The notes under the pieces: model-generated | The model's input: the letters and a program-made list of their open reading frames with translations, nothing else | Told to the model about the DNA's origin: nothing | Database searches by the model: none | Origin: a virus | Lineage: Duplodnaviria > Caudoviricetes | IMG/VR virus record: IMGVR_UViG_3300016670_000048 | Span: 1-64,000 of that record | Length of the DNA: 64,000 bases | Reading direction: 5' to 3' (one strand) | Position numbers and translations under genes: made by a program | Part shown: in pieces, positions 10,984 to 58,450 of the stretch | Layout: every line of letters begins with the position of its first letter | How positions within the stretch are numbered: position 1 is the stretch's first letter

Positions 10984-12315
10984 TCATACGCTCATTTTAC
11001 GTTGCATGATAGTTCCATCCAATTCTTTCCAAGCTGCACCGACAGGAACTGGAAGGGTGGAATTGAAACGCTTTCTGTAGCAATCACCCATAGTATCGCA
11101 CAAGAGGTTCATGTGTTCAACCTTCGTAATGAACGAATCGTGCACAATCAAGATTGGATAGCCTTTCTCAATAAACACTTCAACCACATCCGACGCTAGA
11201 TTACTGTCATGATTCTGCAACACCAAACCATAACTCTCTGATTTACAAAGGATATCTGCAAATTGAGGGTAAGCATTAAACACCATATCTAGAACATCAG
11301 AGCCATTACCCAGTGTGTATTGTTCTTTATCCTCTTTGCTCAGTTTATTAATGTGACGTTGAACAGCCCCACGAGCACCTTTGTAGTCCTTACTATTGAG
11401 CATCACATTAACGGCAAGCTTGACAACACCACGATCTACAGAATTGTTTTCATCTGGAATCATACCAGAATAAACATCTGTTGGCAGGTTGTCACGATCG
11501 ATTCCGTTTAGCTCCGACGCAATAAGAAAATGTAGGTTGCCGTAATCGATTTCACAAACATTACTGTCATCGATGGTGATGTGCCAGCGACCATACAAGT
11601 CACCAACCTTATGCTGCAATCCTAATACATCCGCACGATAGAAACGCCCACCGTGATCAAATGTTTCATTGAAAATACGGCAGTAAATGTTTGTCATAAT
11701 ATCGCCATTACGGTCACGAATAATATGGCTTTCATTCAACACATTAAGATCCCGCACAACCTTAGACATACGGCGAAGACCGGAATTACTCCGAAAAACT
11801 GTTACTACTTTCTCACCATCTCTTAGCTCAAGCGTACCCAGCTGATCTACGTATTGCAATTGAGATTCCATCTTAACCTCTTCATTCCACAATTCTTTGA
11901 ATTTATCTGTTGCTGTCATATAGCTACTAATACGACGTTCAATATCTTCATTAGCTTGACCAACAGAGTTCACAATATACCCGTTATCCTCAAGCCAGTC
12001 AACAGCTTTCTTTATCTTATGTACTGATAATCCTTTCTTACTCTCCACTTTCATGTATTTATCTCGTGGATAGACAAGCCTACTCTCTTTCTTGAGACAG
12101 CAGATAAGATTAGCAATAATAGAGTTAAGTGTAGTCTTATCTTCATAAGTCCACATACGGGTACAATTGACTACATCTTGAGATACCTTCATATCGTACA
12201 TCAATAACTTAGCATTAGAGATATGATTAGTCTTATACAAGAGCAAGGGCTGATATCTGTTACTATCTTCATCTTGTTCAAGTACATCCCATACATCTTC
12301 TTCTTTCTCTTCCAT
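10984..12315 (-). CDS. minimal PolA / T7-RNAP superfamily polymerase (443 aa)
   Basis: GGRFY pre-A motif, motif A EIDY, motif B RxxVK, LQNHDS, motif C VHDSF; putative HTH at N-terminus. Confidence 0.7.
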   Translation of the reverse strand: MEEKEEDVWDVLEQDEDSNRYQPLLLYKTNHISNAKLLMYDMKVSQDVVNCTRMWTYEDKTTLNSIIANLICCLKKESRLVYPRDKYMKVESKKGLSVHKIKKAVDWLEDNGYIVNSVGQANEDIERRISSYMTATDKFKELWNEEVKMESQLQYVDQLGTLELRDGEKVVTVFRSNSGLRRMSKVVRDLNVLNESHIIRDRNGDIMTNIYCRIFNETFDHGGRFYRADVLGLQHKVGDLYGRWHITIDDSNVCEIDYGNLHFLIASELNGIDRDNLPTDVYSGMIPDENNSVDRGVVKLAVNVMLNSKDYKGARGAVQRHINKLSKEDKEQYTLGNGSDVLDMVFNAYPQFADILCKSESYGLVLQNHDSNLASDVVEVFIEKGYPILIVHDSFITKVEHMNLLCDTMGDCYRKRFNSTLPVPVGAAWKELDGTIMQRKMSV

Positions 12316-16816: not shown

Positions 16817-18679
16817 TTGAGTTATATCAGAAAAGTAATCTCTCACTATACAGATTTCTCTGGTGAGAAATTATGTTGCCCAATTCACGGAGAGAACACA
16901 CCATCTCTTCAAGTCTATGAGGATACAAACTCATGGTATTGCTGGGGTGCTTGTGGTGAAGGCGGTGATGAGATTGCATTTGTTAAAAGTATTGATGGTG
17001 TAGACTTTCCTGAAGCTGTAAAGAAAGTCTGTGAAATTCTGAATATTACCAAAGAGGAGCTTATGGAAAGTAAAGATAAAGAAAAGGTAGTTACTAAAGT
17101 CTCAGCAGAGAATGCTGAAGCTATGGACATTGAAGAAGTAAAGGAACTTATTCGTTCCACTGGATATGTGAGTCATGGCTACCGTGGGATTCGTGATGAG
17201 ATCAATAAATTCTTTGGGCACCTAACTAAGCTTGATGATCAAGGTAATGTGCTCGCCCGCTATTACCCTGAGACAAACAACTTCGGTAAATTGACAGGCT
17301 ATAAATGCAGAAACCACCCAAAGGACTTTAGTCACGGTAAGGTTGGTGCTACTGGCAATAAGAGTCAACTGAGTGGGCAGGTTAAATTCAAATCTCCTTC
17401 CAAATACGTGCTCTACGTGGGTGGTGAAGAGGATAAAGCTGCTGCATACCAGATGCTTAAGGAGAATCGCAAGGATCAAGAGTTTGACTCTATTCCTGTA
17501 GTTAGTCCTACATCTGGTGAAGGATCAGCAGCAAAGCAAGCTGCAATGCAATATGACTGGTTTGACCAATACGATATTATTGTAATTGGTATGGATCAAG
17601 ATGAGGCCGGTATTAAAGCAGCTAAAGAAATTGCAGCAGTATTACCTAAAGAAAAACTGCGTATTGCTACATGGTCGGGCAAAGATCCTAACCAGATGTT
17701 GATGGATGGTAAAGAGAAACAATTTGTACGTGATTTCTACAATGCTAAAGAGTTTATCAACAGTGGTATTTCCTCATCTGGTGATGCTGAAGCTGGGCTT
17801 GCTGAGTTCCTTACAGCACCGAAGATTGGTCTTCCTCCTCAGTTGAGTAAGCTTGAAGCTGCAATGCGTGGTGGTATTAAGTCAACAGGTTCTGTTGTAA
17901 ATATCATTGGCGATACTAGTATCGGTAAGAGCTTTCTCTCTGATACATTGATTTATCATTGGTTGTTCAATAGTCCTCGTGTACCTACAATTGTAAGTCT
18001 TGAGCGCACTAAAGAAGAGTTGACAATTGATTTGTTGTCGATGCATCTTAAGAAAAACCTGATGTGGTTCACAGATGGTCATGATGCTGTTGACTATTTG
18101 AATCAACCAGAAGTACAGATTCTTAAGAACGAGCTTCTTTACAATGAAGCCGGTGAGCCTCGATTCTTCATCATTGATGAGCGGGAAGGTGACATTGAAC
18201 TTCTTAAGCGTCAAATGGAAAAGAGCGGCAAAGTAAATGATTCACGATTGATGGTGATTGACCCACTCACCGATTTCTTGCGATCTTTGGGAACAGAGGT
18301 TCAAGAGAACTTTATGATGTGGCAGAAGCTGCAAAAGAAGAACGGATTTGTGTTCATTAACATTCTTCACACACGCAAACCACCAACTGATAAAGACGGC
18401 AACGTTCGTAAAGTGACCGAATATGATGCATTAGGGTCCGGGACATTTATTCAGTCAGCAGACGTGAACATCGTAATCAATCGTGATAAGATGGCTAGCG
18501 ATCCGATTGAAAAGAATACCACCTATGTTGATATGCCTAAGTGTCGTGGGGGTATCACTGGTGAGATTTGTGCGCTATACTATGACGCTGAAACTCGTCA
18601 ACAGTATGATCGTGATGAGTATTTTAATAATCCGGTAGAAGAACCACCGCAACATCATGCGGATGAGATTGATTTTTAA
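16817..18679 (+). CDS. DNA primase-helicase
   Basis: N-terminal CHC2-type Zn finger (CPIH...WYCWGAC), Toprim (GGEED, DQD), DnaB-like helicase (GDTSIGKS, VIDPL, GSGTFIQSAD). Confidence 0.92.
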   Translation: MSYIRKVISHYTDFSGEKLCCPIHGENTPSLQVYEDTNSWYCWGACGEGGDEIAFVKSIDGVDFPEAVKKVCEILNITKEELMESKDKEKVVTKVSAENAEAMDIEEVKELIRSTGYVSHGYRGIRDEINKFFGHLTKLDDQGNVLARYYPETNNFGKLTGYKCRNHPKDFSHGKVGATGNKSQLSGQVKFKSPSKYVLYVGGEEDKAAAYQMLKENRKDQEFDSIPVVSPTSGEGSAAKQAAMQYDWFDQYDIIVIGMDQDEAGIKAAKEIAAVLPKEKLRIATWSGKDPNQMLMDGKEKQFVRDFYNAKEFINSGISSSGDAEAGLAEFLTAPKIGLPPQLSKLEAAMRGGIKSTGSVVNIIGDTSIGKSFLSDTLIYHWLFNSPRVPTIVSLERTKEELTIDLLSMHLKKNLMWFTDGHDAVDYLNQPEVQILKNELLYNEAGEPRFFIIDEREGDIELLKRQMEKSGKVNDSRLMVIDPLTDFLRSLGTEVQENFMMWQKLQKKNGFVFINILHTRKPPTDKDGNVRKVTEYDALGSGTFIQSADVNIVINRDKMASDPIEKNTTYVDMPKCRGGITGEICALYYDAETRQQYDRDEYFNNPVEEPPQHHADEIDF

Positions 18680-18689
18680 GGAGAAGGTT

Positions 18690-20933
18690 TTGGATAAGAA
18701 GTGGTTTGAATCAGATTTTATTTATGACTTAGAAAGTTATCCAAATGTGTTCTCTATGAGTATCATCCATGCTTCCGGGAAACACATGCGAGTCTTTGAG
18801 ATTAGTGATCGTAAGAATGAGATTGAAGGGGTTGCTAAATGCTTGCGGTATCTGGTTCAGAATAAATGTCGTATGGTGGGGTTCAACAATCTTTCATACG
18901 ACTACACCCTTATCCATGAAATCATCAAGTCTCTCAAGGAAGCAAAGAAAACGGGTAAGGTTCCAAATATTACAGCTCAGAAGCTTTACAAGTTGACAAC
19001 ACAAATCATCACGAAGATGCAGTCTGAAGAAAAGTGGTACGGTATTAAAGAAGCTGACCACTTCATTCAGCAGGTGGATTTGTATAAGATCCATCACATG
19101 GATAACATGGCAAAAGCTACATCTTTGAAAATGCTGGAAGTGAACATGCGGTCTACTAACGTGGAGGATTTACCCTTCCCTGTTGGTAAGAAGTTGACAA
19201 GTGATGAGATTGATATTTTGTTGCATTATAACAAACATGATGTTAACGAAACTCTAAAGTTCTATTACTATTCCTATGAGGCGATTCAGCTTCGTAAAGA
19301 ATTGTCTGAGAAATTTGGGTTTGACTGCACAAGCTTTAGTGATAGTAAGATTGGTGAAACTCTATTCATTAATCGTCTGGAGCAAGCTCAGAAGGGTTTG
19401 TGCTACGAGTACAGTAAACACGGTGGTCGTAAGATCAATCAGACTAAGCGTGATAACGTAAAAATTAAAGATTGTCTTTTTGACTATCTAAAATTTGAAC
19501 GTCCTGAGTTTAAGGCTGTTCATGATTGGCTGAGTAATCAGACAGTGCAAGAAACCAAGGGTGTATTCAATGATTATGAAGAACATCAGATTGGAGAGCT
19601 TGCTAAATATGCTCAGATGAAAACCAAGAAGGTGTTGTTTAAGAATCGGTTGAATCTGGATAATAAAAATAAACCTAAAGCTGACTTTGATTTCACTGAG
19701 CTAGATCATCTAGAAGAACTTCAACGTCTGAAAGATGAATTCTTGAAAGAACATCCTATGGGATATTTTGAAGAGAAGGAGACTAAAACATCACGCTCTC
19801 ATAAGCTTAAGGTGACTGCATTCTATCGAGTGGTTGAGGCGATCAACACAGTAATTGATAATAAAGTGTACGTGTATGGTACTGGCGGTATTCACATGTC
19901 TATTGAAAGTGAGACTGTGAGAGCGGATGGTGAATGGACTATTATCGACGCCGATGTCACTTCGATGTATCCGTCGATTTCGATTGCTAACAACGTGTAC
20001 CCCGAACATCTTGGTATTACCTTCTGTAAGGTATATAAGGATCTGTTTATGGAGCGTGGTAAATATCCAAAAGGTAGCGGTCCAAATGGTGCAATTAAGC
20101 TTGCTTTGAACTCTGTGTATGGTAAGTCCAATAGTGAGTTTAGTCCGCTTTATGATCCGAAATATACATTAACTATCACTATTAACGGACAGCTTTGTCT
20201 ATCGATGCTGGCTGAAAAACTGATTGGTCTTGGCTGTAAGATGATTCAGTGTAATACTGATGGCGTGACAGCTTTGGTTCCACGTAATAAAGAATCTGAG
20301 TATTATGAAATCACAAAAGCTTGGGAAAAAACTGTTGGACTTCAGTTGGAGTATGCTGTATATTCAATGATGGCACTTTCTGACGTCAATAATTATTTGG
20401 CTATTTATGAAGATGGTAAAGTAAAAAGTAAAGGTCGTTATGAAGTAGCTCACTTTGAAAAGCTTGGATGGTCTAAAAACCATTCTGCCATGATCGTACC
20501 AAAGGCTGCGTTGGATTATATTGTCTACGGTAAGGACATTGAAGAAACCATTCGTTCACACAAGGATGAATTTGACTTTTTACTCCGCGCCAAAGTACCT
20601 CGTAGCTCAAAGTTGTATCTGTGCTATGAAGATGGTCGTGAGGTCCAACAACAGAACATTTGCCGCTACTACCCATCTGAGAACGGTGGTAAGCTTGTAA
20701 AGCTGATGCCTGCATTGGTCGAAGGGGGTGAATGGCGTAGACTTGGGATGGATACTGACTGGACGGTAGAGACGTGCAATAATATTGCTGAATTTGACTG
20801 GAATAAACTTAACTATGATTATTACATCAAGGAGGCTCAGAAGCTGATTGATGGTGTGGGGATGAGGAAAGAAATTGAAAATAATGCTTTACAGGTTGAT
20901 GAAATCGTGTCAGAATTGATGCATGAAAAATAA
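18690..20933 (+). CDS. DNA polymerase, family B (TTG start at 18690)
   Basis: Exo motifs DLE / FNNLSYD / YNKHD; polymerase motifs DVTSMYPS, KLALNSVYGK, NTDG; AAGGAG SD. Confidence 0.92.
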   Translation: MDKKWFESDFIYDLESYPNVFSMSIIHASGKHMRVFEISDRKNEIEGVAKCLRYLVQNKCRMVGFNNLSYDYTLIHEIIKSLKEAKKTGKVPNITAQKLYKLTTQIITKMQSEEKWYGIKEADHFIQQVDLYKIHHMDNMAKATSLKMLEVNMRSTNVEDLPFPVGKKLTSDEIDILLHYNKHDVNETLKFYYYSYEAIQLRKELSEKFGFDCTSFSDSKIGETLFINRLEQAQKGLCYEYSKHGGRKINQTKRDNVKIKDCLFDYLKFERPEFKAVHDWLSNQTVQETKGVFNDYEEHQIGELAKYAQMKTKKVLFKNRLNLDNKNKPKADFDFTELDHLEELQRLKDEFLKEHPMGYFEEKETKTSRSHKLKVTAFYRVVEAINTVIDNKVYVYGTGGIHMSIESETVRADGEWTIIDADVTSMYPSISIANNVYPEHLGITFCKVYKDLFMERGKYPKGSGPNGAIKLALNSVYGKSNSEFSPLYDPKYTLTITINGQLCLSMLAEKLIGLGCKMIQCNTDGVTALVPRNKESEYYEITKAWEKTVGLQLEYAVYSMMALSDVNNYLAIYEDGKVKSKGRYEVAHFEKLGWSKNHSAMIVPKAALDYIVYGKDIEETIRSHKDEFDFLLRAKVPRSSKLYLCYEDGREVQQQNICRYYPSENGGKLVKLMPALVEGGEWRRLGMDTDWTVETCNNIAEFDWNKLNYDYYIKEAQKLIDGVGMRKEIENNALQVDEIVSELMHEK

Positions 20934-47112: not shown

Positions 47113-48187
47113 TTATTGTTTCACTGGGAATTGAACATTCACTTGATCAAAAGATTGAACAAACATATTTGCAACAGCTTCACCAATTGCTTGCGCTTGT
47201 GCATTAGCATCCATACCTTGCAGAGTAGACCCATCAACATTTACAACTATATCAATTTGATTGCTGTTGTTTGTCACAATACCCATAGCCTTATCATCGG
47301 CTGCGGCCTTAGCCATTTCAGCCTGTTGGTCATCATAGCCAGCAGCATCTTGGTAATATCGCGAGGTTGGATCTTCATAGACAGCCCTGCCACGTTCCTT
47401 AGCCTTAGCTAAATTGAAACCTGTGTTGTTTATAATATCCCCAACAACAGCAGCAGGTGATGGATACTTCCAACCAAACAAATTGGCTTCTTCAGTGGAG
47501 CTATTATTTGTCTCGGTGGTTGGTAGATTACCACTTTTCCATCTTTGGAATTCACCAATTGCATTAAGTATAGCGGCAAGTTCTTTAGTTGTGGCTTGGA
47601 GGGTTGGAAGAAATTCACCAAACAGATTAGTAGGGTTCAGTGCAGACATTTGCTCCCACAGAGTCTTAATGTCTTGCCAATCTTTTACTAACTGTGATGT
47701 TTTGCCTATTCCCAACCAATCTGCTACAAGGCTATCTTTTCCCTCAAGTGCTCTGATAAAAGACTGAGGGAAAAGAAGTAGATCGTCTGCCCATTTTGTA
47801 GCATCATTGAATCCCTCAGCGAGTGTACGAATGAGGCTTCCACTCTCACTCAAACCGGCATTCAAAGTCCTGAAGATTCTTGCAAAGCCTTCTTCTACGC
47901 CTGAGTTAGAGGCGAGAACAGCCATGTCATTTACAGAGTTTTGATAACGAGCTTGTTCAGCCTGAGAGGCTTGGCTTGCGGATGCCAAGGCACCCCCTGC
48001 ATTAGCCCTTTGAGATGCGGCAGCACCGGCATAGGTCAGAATGTCGCTAGTTACCTTACCCTTCTTCATATCAGCTAAAAGCTGTTGAATAGCATCTGCA
48101 CCAGTTTTATTACCGCCAATCTTAGCTTGATACGCCTGTGCAAACAGGGCTGTACCACCGGGCAATGCCTCCGCGATTTGTCCTGTA
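47113..48187 (-). CDS. tape measure protein, exon 2
   Basis: Resumes (T)-ACA-GGA-CAA-ATC = L/TGQIAEALPGG, continuing the tape-measure motif. Confidence 0.9.
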
Positions 48188-48922
48188 CTTTATATTCAAG
48201 CAGAGACGCTACTCTCTGCCCCGTTCACTTATGAACTGCTATAACTCTCGCTATAGAATAGACTATATCTTAGTGTTTTGTAGGTAATTTATAGCATTGT
48301 GTAAAATATCTTGGCAATCTTTCGCGTGACCAATAATAAGATTACAACTATTGCAAAGAAGACCCCTGACCTTGCCCGTTTCATGGCAATGATCAATATT
48401 TAATCCATAGTAGATATTTCTACCATTTCTACAAATAATTTCGTGTTTACCACAAATCTTACAGCAATCGTCTTGTAAGATTCTCATCTGATCATAATAA
48501 GGTTTATCTATACCGACAAACTTCAGTTTAATTTTTAAAGAAGCGCACTCAAAACAAACAGTGTTGTACTTTAAAAGATCAGTGTCTTGGTAATTTTCAC
48601 GGTCTTTTCTCTTGGCGAACTTAACAATTTCAAGTTCTCCTTTGCAATACGTACAAATTTTATACAATTAACACCCCTCCTGTTTCGGCTGTGCTTACAG
48701 CCTACTCTACTCCGTTCCACATCTCTGTGCCGTTTCGATAGTCGTTGAACGTTCCCTTTTGGGCTTCGCTGCTGATTTTCCAAAATAGTTGTTTTCAAAC
48801 ATTCACGCTTGAACCATATATTCTACTTAGGTTCTACGTTGTAGTCAACTATTAATAAGGACTTTCCAGCAATTAAGGAGGTAAATTTTTCTACGTATTT
48901 CTACGCAGCGAGCCTAATATTA
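48188..48922 (-). mobile_element. group I self-splicing intron (probably subgroup IA2), 735 nt
   Basis: P AAUUGCUGGAAA, Q AAUCAGCAG, R GUUCAACGACUA, S AAGAUAUAGUC; P1 with U.G at the 5' splice site; terminal G; splicing restores the frame. Confidence 0.93.
48263..48667 (-). CDS. intron-encoded endonuclease VII-like homing endonuclease (134 aa)
   Basis: CTYC...CFEC, QDDCCKICG...IDHCHETGKVRGLLCNSCN..IG; lies in the P8 loop. Confidence 0.88.
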   Translation of the reverse strand: MYKICTYCKGELEIVKFAKRKDRENYQDTDLLKYNTVCFECASLKIKLKFVGIDKPYYDQMRILQDDCCKICGKHEIICRNGRNIYYGLNIDHCHETGKVRGLLCNSCNLIIGHAKDCQDILHNAINYLQNTKI

Positions 48923-49725
48923 AGCTCTTCACTCATAAGCTTTCCTTTACCAGCAACTTGTGAAAGTGCTCGGAAAAGTCTGTTCTGAGTAGTTTTGTCT
49001 AGCTTATTCACCCGTGCCAATTCAGCAAAACCAGAGAATACTTTCTGACTTTCTTTCAGTCCAATACCTGAACCAGTAAGACCGGAGATTAGTTTGTTGT
49101 AATCTTGAGAAGCATCTAGGTAGTTAAAACCAATCCTCTGCCCTTCATTCTTAAGGTATTGGAAGGAGTCTTTACCTTGTTGCTCTGTACCACCAGCTTG
49201 TTGTACAACAGCAGTGGATTGCAATTCAGCAGATACCACTTGTTGGTTTTTACGATTCAATGCAGCCAAACCATAAGCACCAAATCCTAATGCTAAGCCA
49301 CCACCAAGCAAGCCTCCCATACCACCAAATACCGCACCGCCTCTTGCAGCCCTACTTCCGGGGACAGGTACAGGGACCGGTGGATGAGGACCCCCACCGG
49401 GAGGCAAAGGTGGGCCGGGTGGTGGAACTGGCAGCCTACGAGCAGCACGTAACAAAGCTGCTAACAAATTCCTATCATTAACAACAAACCTAGATATCTC
49501 AAAGGCAACTTTAGGGCTTGCTGCATCGAGTGCAGTTCCAAGAGTCTTTGTAAGCTTAGCTTGGTCCACTGTAAAACCAGTAATATTTAGGACAATAGGT
49601 TTACCAGCAATCTTACCAAACTTTAAGATTCTAGCTTCCAATCGACTTAATATAGTATCAACACGCTTGACACTTGTCTGGTCAATGTGCATACCGATGG
49701 AAGCGAAGTATTTCGCTATATTCAA
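48923..49725 (-). CDS. tape measure protein, exon 1 (spliced product 625 aa)
   Basis: LFRALSQVAGKGKLMSEEL tape-measure motif cut at the splice site; follows tail chaperones. Confidence 0.9.
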
Positions 49726-50340: not shown

Positions 50341-50838
50341 TTAAAACAAGCCCTCAACGAAGTTTGTAGCTTCTTTTAAGGCGCCATCAAACAATGAAGT
50401 GCTAGGTCTGGAGTTACCGTAAACCTTGAAAGTATCAGTTGTTTGACAAAAGATTTCCCAGTTTCTATACTCAAACTGACCAGAGAAGGTAACTGAAGGA
50501 TAACCAGTAATAAAAGCTTCGTTGGAGTTGAATACAGAGCGTCCTGAGTTATCTTTGAGTGTTAGAGCAATCCTTGCAGTTCCTTCTTCTAGATCAAGCT
50601 CATGAATGTATGATAATACATCATTACTCTGCGATGACTGAAGAATGGGGAAAGTAAGTGTTGCAGAAGTGTCACGATTTACTACACGTGTATTTTTACC
50701 ACGGATACCCCGGATGGGAGTAAAACCTTTTGAAGATCTTGTAATACTAATTGACTGCCAACCAGTAACTTGATATCCACCTATGATTAAAACTACATCT
50801 TTTGGGCTGTATGTTTTCACATCAAAAGTATTAGCCAT
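50341..50838 (-). CDS. tail-tube-fold structural protein (paralog 3)
   Basis: TYSPKDVVLIIGG...LKDNSGRSVF...AFI motif shared with the tube gene. Confidence 0.78.
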   Translation of the reverse strand: MANTFDVKTYSPKDVVLIIGGYQVTGWQSISITRSSKGFTPIRGIRGKNTRVVNRDTSATLTFPILQSSQSNDVLSYIHELDLEEGTARIALTLKDNSGRSVFNSNEAFITGYPSVTFSGQFEYRNWEIFCQTTDTFKVYGNSRPSTSLFDGALKEATNFVEGLF

Positions 50839-51341
50839 TAGATAATACCTTCAATGGTTGGTATGGCTGAAACTGCAAGGTTAACAAGGCTTTCAAGGAT
50901 AGATGAGGCATCCCCATTACCACCAATGTTGATGACTGCTTGAGATGATCTTAGTACCCAAGTTCGACTATCAAAGTTATTGCTTTTAACAATAGACGCT
51001 GGAGATTCAATCCACGTAGTGGTTGAGAAGAACATGTCACTACCGCTTGAATCACGCACCATCAGTGGAAATTTACCACGCTGGGTTATTTCATCTAACT
51101 GCCAGAACTTTGTTAACACATCATTTGAATCACTGCCGCTATAAAGAGTCAACGTAATTGTGTAAGTTTGGTCATTGTTATAAAGACGTGCTACAGTTCC
51201 ATCTGGAGTTCTGGTTGAGCTGAATGGCACTATATCCTTTCTTACTTCTAGGAAAGTTCCATCTACAAAACCAGATATTGGAAGTATCCCACCAATAAGA
51301 ACTGTAACTTGTTCTGGAATATAAGTAGCTAATTGAGTCAT
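50838..51341 (-). CDS. tail-tube-fold structural protein (paralog 2)
   Basis: TYIPEQVTVLIGG...GFVDGTF...VRDSSG. Confidence 0.78.
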   Translation of the reverse strand: MTQLATYIPEQVTVLIGGILPISGFVDGTFLEVRKDIVPFSSTRTPDGTVARLYNNDQTYTITLTLYSGSDSNDVLTKFWQLDEITQRGKFPLMVRDSSGSDMFFSTTTWIESPASIVKSNNFDSRTWVLRSSQAVINIGGNGDASSILESLVNLAVSAIPTIEGII

Positions 51342-56924: not shown

Positions 56925-57968
56925 TTAAGTCGAAGAAATCAGTTTAACCAGCACTTGAGGCTGAGTTGCGAAGTACAGAGGCGAAGTCTCAACTTGCATT
57001 TCATGGAATTCATCTTTAGGATCGGTGAACTCATATGCAAACATTTCAACGCCCGGACCATTAGCACCCGACAGTTTGTTGCTTGGACCGTAGTAACCAC
57101 GGAACAGATCATTTACAACTGGGATAACGTGGCCAGTGTCGGTAGCAACAGCTACTTCAGTGGTGTCGTTAGGCAGTTTGAAGATGTGATCGTAGGTGAT
57201 GAAAGTTACACCTTTGTAGGTGAACTGATCAACCGAACCCCAAGCCATGAACTGGTTGGTGCTATTACGGTTGATTTCAACTTGGGAAGCGTAGTACAGA
57301 TAAGCTTGACGAATCTGTGGGTGGCTAACCAGTTTATCAAAGAACGAACCATCAACAACAACACGAATACCGCCACCAATGGTGGAACCAGTTTTCAGGT
57401 TGGTTTGCAGATAGCGCTTCAGTTGCGAGATTTTAGCGTTAACATCAGTAGCAGCATCACCAAGGTCAAAGTCAATCACTTGCTGAGTAACACCAAACTC
57501 GGTGAACATGTCTGCAATTACAGCACCGTCGGGGGTCTTCATAATCCCCTTAACAGCTTGCAGCTTCATGTACTCAAGCGATTGCTCAACTTGTGCACGC
57601 ATGTCAGTCAGTTTTTGTACACGGACATTAGCCAGTTGCTCAGGAGAGTCTGGGGTGCCCGGCATACGCCAGCCTTGAATATCTTCTGGGGTGATATAGT
57701 CGCTATGCTTGAAGTAAGCCAGTGGCAGCGAGAAGGTTTGTACCTGACGGTCATTACCTTTGGTAGTCTCACGACTACGACGAGATACTTGTGGCAGCAG
57801 GGTGGTGTCATTCATGCTCTTATCGAACACGATTGCAGTTTGAGTAGTACCTTGGGTACGGAACAGGCCCATACCGCCAATCAAACCAGCTTGGTTATCA
57901 AGGTTATTAATTTCTTGGGTCCAGTCTACAAGCTGGAAGCCATTACCATACGAGCGGGTAGTTGCCAT
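56925..57968 (-). CDS. major capsid protein (lambda E-like)
   Basis: 347 aa after decoration gene; strong codon bias. Confidence 0.9.
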   Translation of the reverse strand: MATTRSYGNGFQLVDWTQEINNLDNQAGLIGGMGLFRTQGTTQTAIVFDKSMNDTTLLPQVSRRSRETTKGNDRQVQTFSLPLAYFKHSDYITPEDIQGWRMPGTPDSPEQLANVRVQKLTDMRAQVEQSLEYMKLQAVKGIMKTPDGAVIADMFTEFGVTQQVIDFDLGDAATDVNAKISQLKRYLQTNLKTGSTIGGGIRVVVDGSFFDKLVSHPQIRQAYLYYASQVEINRNSTNQFMAWGSVDQFTYKGVTFITYDHIFKLPNDTTEVAVATDTGHVIPVVNDLFRGYYGPSNKLSGANGPGVEMFAYEFTDPKDEFHEMQVETSPLYFATQPQVLVKLISST

Positions 57969-57981
57969 TATTTACTGTTCC

Positions 57982-58410
57982 TTACGCGAATTGATTTGGT
58001 TGTTCGATGAGCTTGATACCCACAGCTTCCATTTGGGCATAAACAGCAGCCAGCTCAGGAGCGGTATCAACGGAAGCACCAAATACGAGATTTGCCTTAC
58101 CTACACCAGCAGGGCCACGGAACAGAACAACTACGTTAGTATCAGTGGTTGCAGCAATAGTTTGTTTGTTGTCGCCTTTAGGTTCGCCAATATAAATACC
58201 AGCAAAGTTTTGGCTACCGTCAGAGGCAGTGGCTTCCAAGATTTTGTACTTACCAGTAGCAGTAACTTTGCCGAGAACGGTGCCGATTACATAAGTTTTG
58301 ATTGCAGCTTCGTTAGCAACAACTACGTCACGGCAGTGACCGTATTCAGGGTGGTCTTCATATTGCAGAACTGCGCCGAGGCGAGTAGAGCGGGTTTCGA
58401 TTGCAGCCAT
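57982..58410 (-). CDS. head decoration protein (lambda D-like)
   Basis: GTVLGKVTATGKY...A.DGSQ. Confidence 0.85.
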   Translation of the reverse strand: MAAIETRSTRLGAVLQYEDHPEYGHCRDVVVANEAAIKTYVIGTVLGKVTATGKYKILEATASDGSQNFAGIYIGEPKGDNKQTIAATTDTNVVVLFRGPAGVGKANLVFGASVDTAPELAAVYAQMEAVGIKLIEQPNQFA

Positions 58411-58450
58411 ATTATTTGAAACTCCTAGCTAGGATAATTGATAAACAATA

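Follow-up and report, generated by a model that had tools for sequence, protein, structure and literature searches.

A putative mobile group I intron of subgroup IA, with an endonuclease VII-type reading frame, in the tape-measure gene of an uncultured myovirus

The window, i.e. the whole 64,000-nucleotide stretch of DNA that was analyzed (G+C content 40.6%), comes from an IMG/VR virus record of 86,180 bp with an estimated completeness of 98%. The terminase of this virus shows at most 53% identity to those of Pseudomonas phage phiPMW-type myoviruses. The ∼86 kb uncultured virus is a myovirus, and the interrupted gene described here occupies the position expected of the tape-measure protein (TMP) gene. 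Upstream of it lie the genes for the large terminase, the portal, the tail sheath, two tube-like proteins and a tail chaperone, while a LysM/tail protein and a baseplate wedge protein are encoded downstream. Two adjacent paralogues (165 and 167 aa; positions 50341-51341, minus strand) both match the virion structural protein family phrog_280 and, judged by their position, are likely tail tube proteins. Elsewhere in the window, two ORFs of 351 and 142 aa (56955-58419, plus strand) run antiparallel to the surrounding minus-strand structural module and have no Pfam match, and two large ORFs (443 and 758 aa, at 10984-12315 and 18657-20933) have no Pfam match at E ≤ 1e-5. The interrupted gene was divided into the following parts:

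48923-49725, minus strand: predicted tape-measure exon 1, 267 codons plus 2 nt, TTG start at 49725
48188-48922, minus strand: predicted group I intron, 735 nt, subgroup IA (IA2-like), terminal G at 48188
48263-48667, minus strand: putative homing endonuclease ORF, 134 aa, located in the P8 loop of the intron, UUG start
47113-48187, minus strand: predicted tape-measure exon 2, 1 nt plus 357 codons plus stop, starting with UACAGGA at 48187

Removal of the 735 nt, which joins position 48923 to 48187, gives an ORF of 625 aa with no internal stop. Its product reads ...GKGKLMSEEL-TGQIAEALPGG..., with LMSEELTGQIAEALPGG as the predicted junction peptide, and no gap opens at the junction when it is aligned with ten full-length homologues (606-682 aa) that lack the interruption. 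The alignment of exon 1 with full-length homologues starts at residue 1, and the first residue of exon 2 aligns with residue 273 of an uninterrupted protein (P0006). The two parts also match consecutive segments of tape-measure profiles: exon 1 covers positions 14-115 of the 192 positions of Pfam TMP_3 and positions 316-431 of the TMP family phrog_5255, and exon 2 covers phrog_5255 positions 428-551, directly after those of exon 1. Exon 1 alone scores 37.2 bits with TMP_3 (PF20155), against a cut-off of 41, and the match of an intron-less homologue (P0003; 46.9 bits, residues 172-354) spans the junction.

Forty related IMG/VR loci were retrieved with exon 2 as the query. The junction is crossed in a single tblastn segment by 37 of them; two others (L002 and L020) are interrupted at exactly the junction residue of the window, and one (L039) stops short of the junction. 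At the amino acid level, exon 2 is 96-98% identical to its counterparts in L001 and L002. No GenBank phage was matched by the gene in megablast or by exon 2 in tblastn, and exon 1 matched solely distant tape-measure proteins of Pseudomonas phages. The first ∼450 nt of the gene (49275-49725, minus strand), which include a Pro/Gly-rich stretch, proved hypervariable in all comparisons, relatives with 85-95% identity in exon 2 being only ∼50% identical here.

Colinearity with uninterrupted homologues and the consecutive TMP profile matches, together with the covariation and the same-site intron of relatives presented below, support the reading of the two ORFs as exons of one tape-measure gene, apparently split by an IA2-like group I intron. 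This agrees with an earlier note on this DNA, which had taken the two ORFs for exons, had suggested a search for intron-less alleles (of which the 37 loci are examples), and had predicted a truncated protein of 274 aa from unspliced RNA. The latter is the length of the unspliced exon 1 frame (49725-48901), which ends at a UAG codon (48903-48901) 20 nt into the intron.

Exon 1 ends with GAAGAGCU at 48923, and the intron begins with UAAUAUUAGGCUC and ends with ...AUAUAAAG. The position of the splice sites is ambiguous by 1 nt at the DNA level, with a U flanking both sides. Of the two placements, only the proposed one closes P1 with U.G at the 5' splice site and leaves G as the last intron nucleotide; after the 1-nt shift, the intron would end in U. 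In a strand-by-strand check, all helix strands were located and found to be complementary at defined coordinates. The structural elements are listed below.

48927-48923 with 48914-48910, minus strand: P1, exon GAGCU with guide GGCUC, U.G pair at the 5' splice site
48908-48902 with 48897-48891, minus strand: P2, GAAA loop, holds the in-frame stop of exon 1
48881-48876 with 48681-48676, minus strand: P3
48871-48866 with 48775-48770, minus strand: P4
48861-48859 with 48781-48779, minus strand: P5
48853-48846 with 48791-48784, minus strand: P5a
48834-48830 with 48815-48811, minus strand: P5 extension hairpin, with CCUAAG...UAUGG at 48831-48814
48763-48761 with 48756-48754, minus strand: P6a
48743-48739 with 48265-48261, minus strand: P7, GACUA/UAGUC
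48729-48726 with 48721-48718, minus strand: P7.1
48702-48697 with 48692-48687, minus strand: P7.2
48675-48670 with 48277-48272, minus strand: P8, endonuclease ORF in its loop
48256-48250 with 48245-48239, minus strand: P9, GAGA loop
48236-48232 with 48227-48223, minus strand: P9.1
48219-48213 with 48206-48200, minus strand: P9.2
48872-48863 and 48777-48769, minus strand: P element UUGCUGGAAA and Q element AAUCAGCAG, respectively
48750-48739 and 48271-48261, minus strand: R element GUUCAACGACUA and S element AAGAUAUAGUC, respectively
48668-48890, minus strand: 5' part of the catalytic core, P3 to the P8 5' strand, including the P5 extension, P7.1 and P7.2
48188-48277, minus strand: 3' part of the ribozyme, P8 3' strand, J8/7, P7 3' strand, P9-P9.2 and terminal G

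For P10, 2 bp can be formed at best. The intron was placed in subgroup IA on account of its P7.1 and P7.2 hairpins, which separate P7 from the P3 3' strand; it is IA2-like, with IA2 not formally set apart from IA1. The splice sites, helices P1 to P9.2 and terminal G proposed in the earlier note are thus each present and complementary, its positions for P, Q, R and S are exact, and the IA2-like extra helices it described correspond to the P7.1 and P7.2 hairpins at 48729-48718 and 48702-48687. Its account of the 735-nt intron holds for the structure; the endonuclease ORF, which makes up 405 of the 735 nt, was missing from it. The motif CCUAAG...UAUGG in the P5 extension (48811-48834), the classical 11-nt GAAA-tetraloop receptor, is conserved in L020 and might dock with the GAAA loop of P2.

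A scan of the window with Rfam at gathering thresholds gave no match. In a permissive scan, as the Infernal comparison proposed in the earlier note, the group I intron model RF00028 (Intron_gpI) matched in two pieces on the minus strand: (i) 48672-48932, extending from P1 to the P3 3' strand (39.5 bits, E = 2.9e-8), and (ii) 48241-48271, comprising J8/7, the P7 3' strand and P9 (18.4 bits). The E-value refers to a search of 1.3 kb and corresponds to 1.4e-6 for the whole 64 kb window, across which RF00028 was the sole RNA-family match at E ≤ 1. The 405-nt ORF lies between the two pieces, and each scores below the gathering score of 50 bits. However, introns 2 and 3 of the spliced TMP gene of Vibrio phage ICP1 (17.5 + 28.9 bits and 38.9 bits, respectively) are also below the cut-off, which is therefore not discriminating for ORF-bearing phage introns. 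The P7, J8/7 and R elements of the window agree with the RF00028 family consensus. An RF00028 search of the window's own genome reported nothing, although cmscan matches the intron; this was taken as a filter effect. Neither a second intron nor a second copy of the endonuclease was found in the 86 kb genome.

The 134-aa product of the intron ORF consists of an N-terminal CxxC...CxxC part followed by an EndoVII-type HNH domain. Over residues 52-131 it matches Pfam PF02945 (Endonuclease_7; E = 1.7e-17) with a score of 63.6 bits, the cut-off being 23.6 bits; further matches were to the endonuclease VII families of PHROG. In GenBank, the ORF is closest to 'endonuclease VII' genes that stand alone in T7-like phages of Klebsiella and Escherichia (∼38% identity), and it might, by analogy, be read as a free-standing endonuclease gene between independent genes; alternatively, the insertion might be of another kind, such as an intein or group II intron. 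No group I ribozyme would be involved in either case. Nevertheless, the 330 nt of non-coding sequence flanking the ORF carry a group I core, and the two neighboring ORFs are halves of one Pfam/PHROG domain. This explanation appears already contradicted by the sequence, and we consider its probability negligible. In particular, an intein was excluded by the in-frame stops, and a group II intron by the family searches, in which neither group II nor any RNA family other than RF00028 was matched.

The two ends of the endonuclease gene overlap the core of the ribozyme. Its Shine-Dalgarno sequence AGGAGG (48681-48676) is the 3' strand of P3, six of the eight nucleotides of the spacer between AGGAGG and the UUG start form the 5' strand of P8, and its UAG stop codon (48265-48263) provides the first three bases of the P7 3' strand. 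A further motif was noted upstream:

48820-48848, minus strand: sigma-70-like promoter motif, TTGACT-17-TAGAAT, within the P5 extension, 10 of 12 consensus positions

In L020, one substitution makes the -10 hexamer of this motif a perfect TATAAT, and the promoter consensus scan overall was not above chance. One may speculate that the motif might give the endonuclease a transcript of its own.

The intron of L020 is the same as that of the window and occupies the same site (734 nt, 87% identical). In a two-sequence alignment, all 89 proposed pairs are kept as standard pairs in both introns and none is broken. Four pairs differ by compensatory changes on both strands (two in P7.2 and one each in P2 and P3), and three others by G-C/G.U wobble changes, one of which is in P2. 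When the partner strands were slid by 1-3 columns, pairing fell to 30-42%. In a shuffle control of the pair test, made with this one close relative, 22 of 500 shuffles reached the observed values; taken alone, the two-sequence covariation is suggestive. The ribozyme is 93.7% identical between the two introns in the 5' core and 92.2% in the 3' part, while the endonuclease ORF shows dS of 0.78, dN of 0.13 and dN/dS of 0.17, which argues that both the RNA and the endonuclease protein are under purifying selection.

On a broader scale, the exact 22-nt R element was found in 28 IMG/VR stretches. A MAFFT alignment of 30 R-element introns was too poor for pair counting, and per-hairpin folds were used instead. 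P7.1 and P7.2 are kept as hairpins with different sequences in most of the fifteen alignable relatives. The 5' core matches introns in 330 GenBank phage records, among them the capsid gene of SP-15, ICP1, many coliphages and Pseudomonas phages. As P1 pairing requires, GAAGAGCU is kept in all three intron-bearing alleles. The intron-less alleles show synonymous variation at the exon positions of P1, several of them having the identical 8+6 nt target, and the junctions of intron-less L017 and L025 read GAAGAGCT/TACAGG. The exons were also examined for an abrupt shift in identity at the insertion site, which would mark a co-conversion or recombination boundary, and none was found.

A search for proteins of exon 1 length identified 93 other clusters (at 90% identity), which were sorted by their C-terminal tails. 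The largest group (56 clusters) ends after EEL, i.e. at the site of the window, and most of its tails have the form xxRLAA, the translation of the conserved P1-P2 region. Another 29 clusters end after EEL-TGQ(I/L)A (site C, 16 nt downstream), and five, classified from the C-terminal tails alone, end after LMS (site A, 8 nt upstream); the tails of the remaining three fit none of the three sites clearly. The full-length clusters of this TMP family number at least 355, and thus perhaps one fifth of the alleles are interrupted within a stretch of 24 nt.

Different intron forms were found at these sites. The loci L002 (2901-3999) and L073 (3841-4937) carry, at the site of the window, a different intron with P7 GGCCA/UGGUC in its core and, in its P6 loop, a gene for a 240-aa HNH_3 endonuclease that is 54% identical to ICP1 ORF80. 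Similarity between the L002 intron and that of the window is confined to the two ends, with 64 nt at the 5' end (P1-P2, 89%) and 85 nt at the 3' end (P9-P9.2, 94%). A third form is present at site C in L086 (3031-4034, minus strand), where a group I intron with an HNH_3 gene, a 5' U.G pair and a terminal G lies 16 nt downstream of the window's site, a spacing that fits our reading of ICP1 intron 3 (see below).

The interruption could also be a decayed relic that no longer splices, with the tape-measure function provided by two polypeptides or the phage being defective. The splicing proposed here was deduced from sequence, the Rfam pieces are below the gathering cut-off, and the record, as a metagenomic assembly, may not derive from a viable phage, all of which would suit a relic. 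However, exon 2 has no usable start, since it begins mid-codon and its sole in-frame TTG (48165) lies 2 nt after GGAGG. Moreover, conservation of the ribozyme greatly exceeds that of synonymous sites in the ORF it contains, all substitutions in helices keep the pairing, and P7, J8/7 and the R element fit the family consensus. Finally, the same end point recurs in at least 56 other clusters (at 90% identity), an unlikely frequency for a lethal lesion in an essential gene. In our assessment a relic is improbable. The locus displays the anatomy of a group I intron, exact restoration of the reading frame, compensatory conservation and occupancy of the same site in relatives, and we are highly confident that 48188-48922 represents a mobile subgroup IA group I intron in the tape-measure gene, for which both splicing and homing are predicted.

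According to this model, the late transcript would comprise exon 1, the intron and exon 2, and the intron RNA would fold into P1-P9.2. An external guanosine would attack after the U of the U.G pair in P1 (between 48923 and 48922), and the freed exon 1 would then attack after the terminal G48188, yielding a single mRNA for the 625-aa tape-measure protein. If the intron is self-splicing in this manner, tail length would depend on splicing. In unspliced RNA, translation of exon 1 would stop within P2; an early stop of this type is usual in phage introns and keeps ribosomes off the core. The HNH enzyme encoded in the P8 loop presumably cuts intron-less alleles of co-infecting relatives near GAAGAGCU/UACAGG, and repair of the cut allele would copy the intron in. 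The ribosome-binding site of the endonuclease belongs to P3 and the stop codon to P7, and the RNA is therefore expected either to fold as a ribozyme or to be translated into the endonuclease: the folded ribozyme would mask the ribosome-binding site, and a translating ribosome would unfold the core. The activity and target of the enzyme, like this translational coupling, are predictions; for cleavage of intron-less alleles, the only indirect signs are the dN/dS of 0.17 and the patchy occurrence of the intron across related loci.

The classical IA2 introns of phages that bear endonuclease ORFs are those of T4 td, nrdB and sunY, SPO1 DNA polymerase and Twort. The intron of the window has in common with them (i) P7.1 and P7.2 between P7 and the P3 3' strand, (ii) an ORF looped out from a peripheral helix, (iii) an in-frame stop soon after the 5' splice site, and (iv) a position within a highly conserved motif of an essential gene. 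The host genes differ, as the classical introns reside in genes of DNA metabolism and the intron of the window in a gene for virion structure. It also differs from the classical IA2 introns in that both ends of its ORF overlap core helices, with the ribosome-binding site in P3 and the stop codon in P7.

The earlier note knew of no well-characterized tape-measure case and called for a literature check. Introns of this kind are documented in two reports, published in 2008 (PMC2504315) and in 2023 (PMC10448857), the latter with splicing shown. Barth, Nguyen & Seed 2023 (PMC10448857) describe the TMP transcript of ICP1, based on RNA-seq and RT-PCR, as four exons and three introns, the middle one carrying an HNH-3 endonuclease, and term TMP 'another frequently interrupted gene'. 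The introns of ICP1 and the window interrupt the same host gene at the same conserved motif, and the ICP1 locus contains three RF00028 matches. The ribozyme core of the window matches intron 3 of the ICP1 TMP locus over 180 nt, with 71% identity. Read from sequence and protein homology, ICP1 exon 1 ends with ...QVMA, the counterpart of ...KLMS in the window. Intron 2 of ICP1 starts after GAAGAACU, at the codon position of the window's GAAGAGCU, and intron 3 begins 16 nt beyond the intron 2 site (both boundaries being placed by sequence comparison). ICP1 would thus have three introns separated by micro-exons of 8 nt and 16 nt, as read from its sequence, whereas in the window only the middle site is occupied. 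The endonucleases also differ, the window having an EndoVII-type HNH enzyme in the P8 loop and ICP1 an unrelated HNH_3 enzyme in the P6 loop, and the phages themselves are distant, with exon 2 proteins only ∼26% identical.

We consider it about an even chance that the ...LMS-EEL-TGQIA... motif in proteins of the TMP_3 family is an intron-homing hot spot with three fixed sites shared with ICP1, at which the site-specific intron ends (P1-P2 and P9-P9.2) have been exchanged independently of the core and the endonuclease. If so, three sites 8 and 16 nt apart would all be occupied in ICP1 and occupied singly in the large clade of uncultured relatives. This would also account for the two intron forms at the site of the window, which have the same ends, different cores and unrelated HNH enzymes.

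In the parts of their report concerned with tape-measure genes, Tourasse & Kolsto 2008 (PMC2504315) describe IA1/IA2 introns at three sites of TMP genes in prophages of the B. cereus group (TMP-IVS1/2/3), some with and some without endonuclease genes, and note that different introns at one site have peripheries more alike than their cores. The introns of the window and L002 show a similar pattern, sharing their ends at one site and differing in the core. In contrast to the window, the B. cereus-group elements belong to Gram-positive prophages with tape-measure proteins of more than 1200 aa, and, as far as these parts of the report describe them, the introns were predicted in silico.

Group I introns of tape-measure genes are therefore already documented, the closest characterized relatives of the present one being the TMP introns of ICP1, and a tape-measure intron opens no new kind of biology. 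What seems mildly new, on comparison of the sequences, is the apparent conservation of three sites between ICP1 and an environmental clade, and the apparent exchange of core and endonuclease between introns with the same ends. With respect to annotation, two 'hypothetical' ORFs with an HNH gene between them would become one 625-aa tape-measure gene with an intron, and the same correction is due for at least 56 other public clusters (at 90% identity) ending at the same codon. Evidence that mobile introns favor tape-measure genes has been growing, and the locus contributes an environmental case. Together, the intron-less alleles, the two forms at one site and the sites 8 and 16 nt away would constitute a natural series for following the reshuffling of introns and endonucleases.
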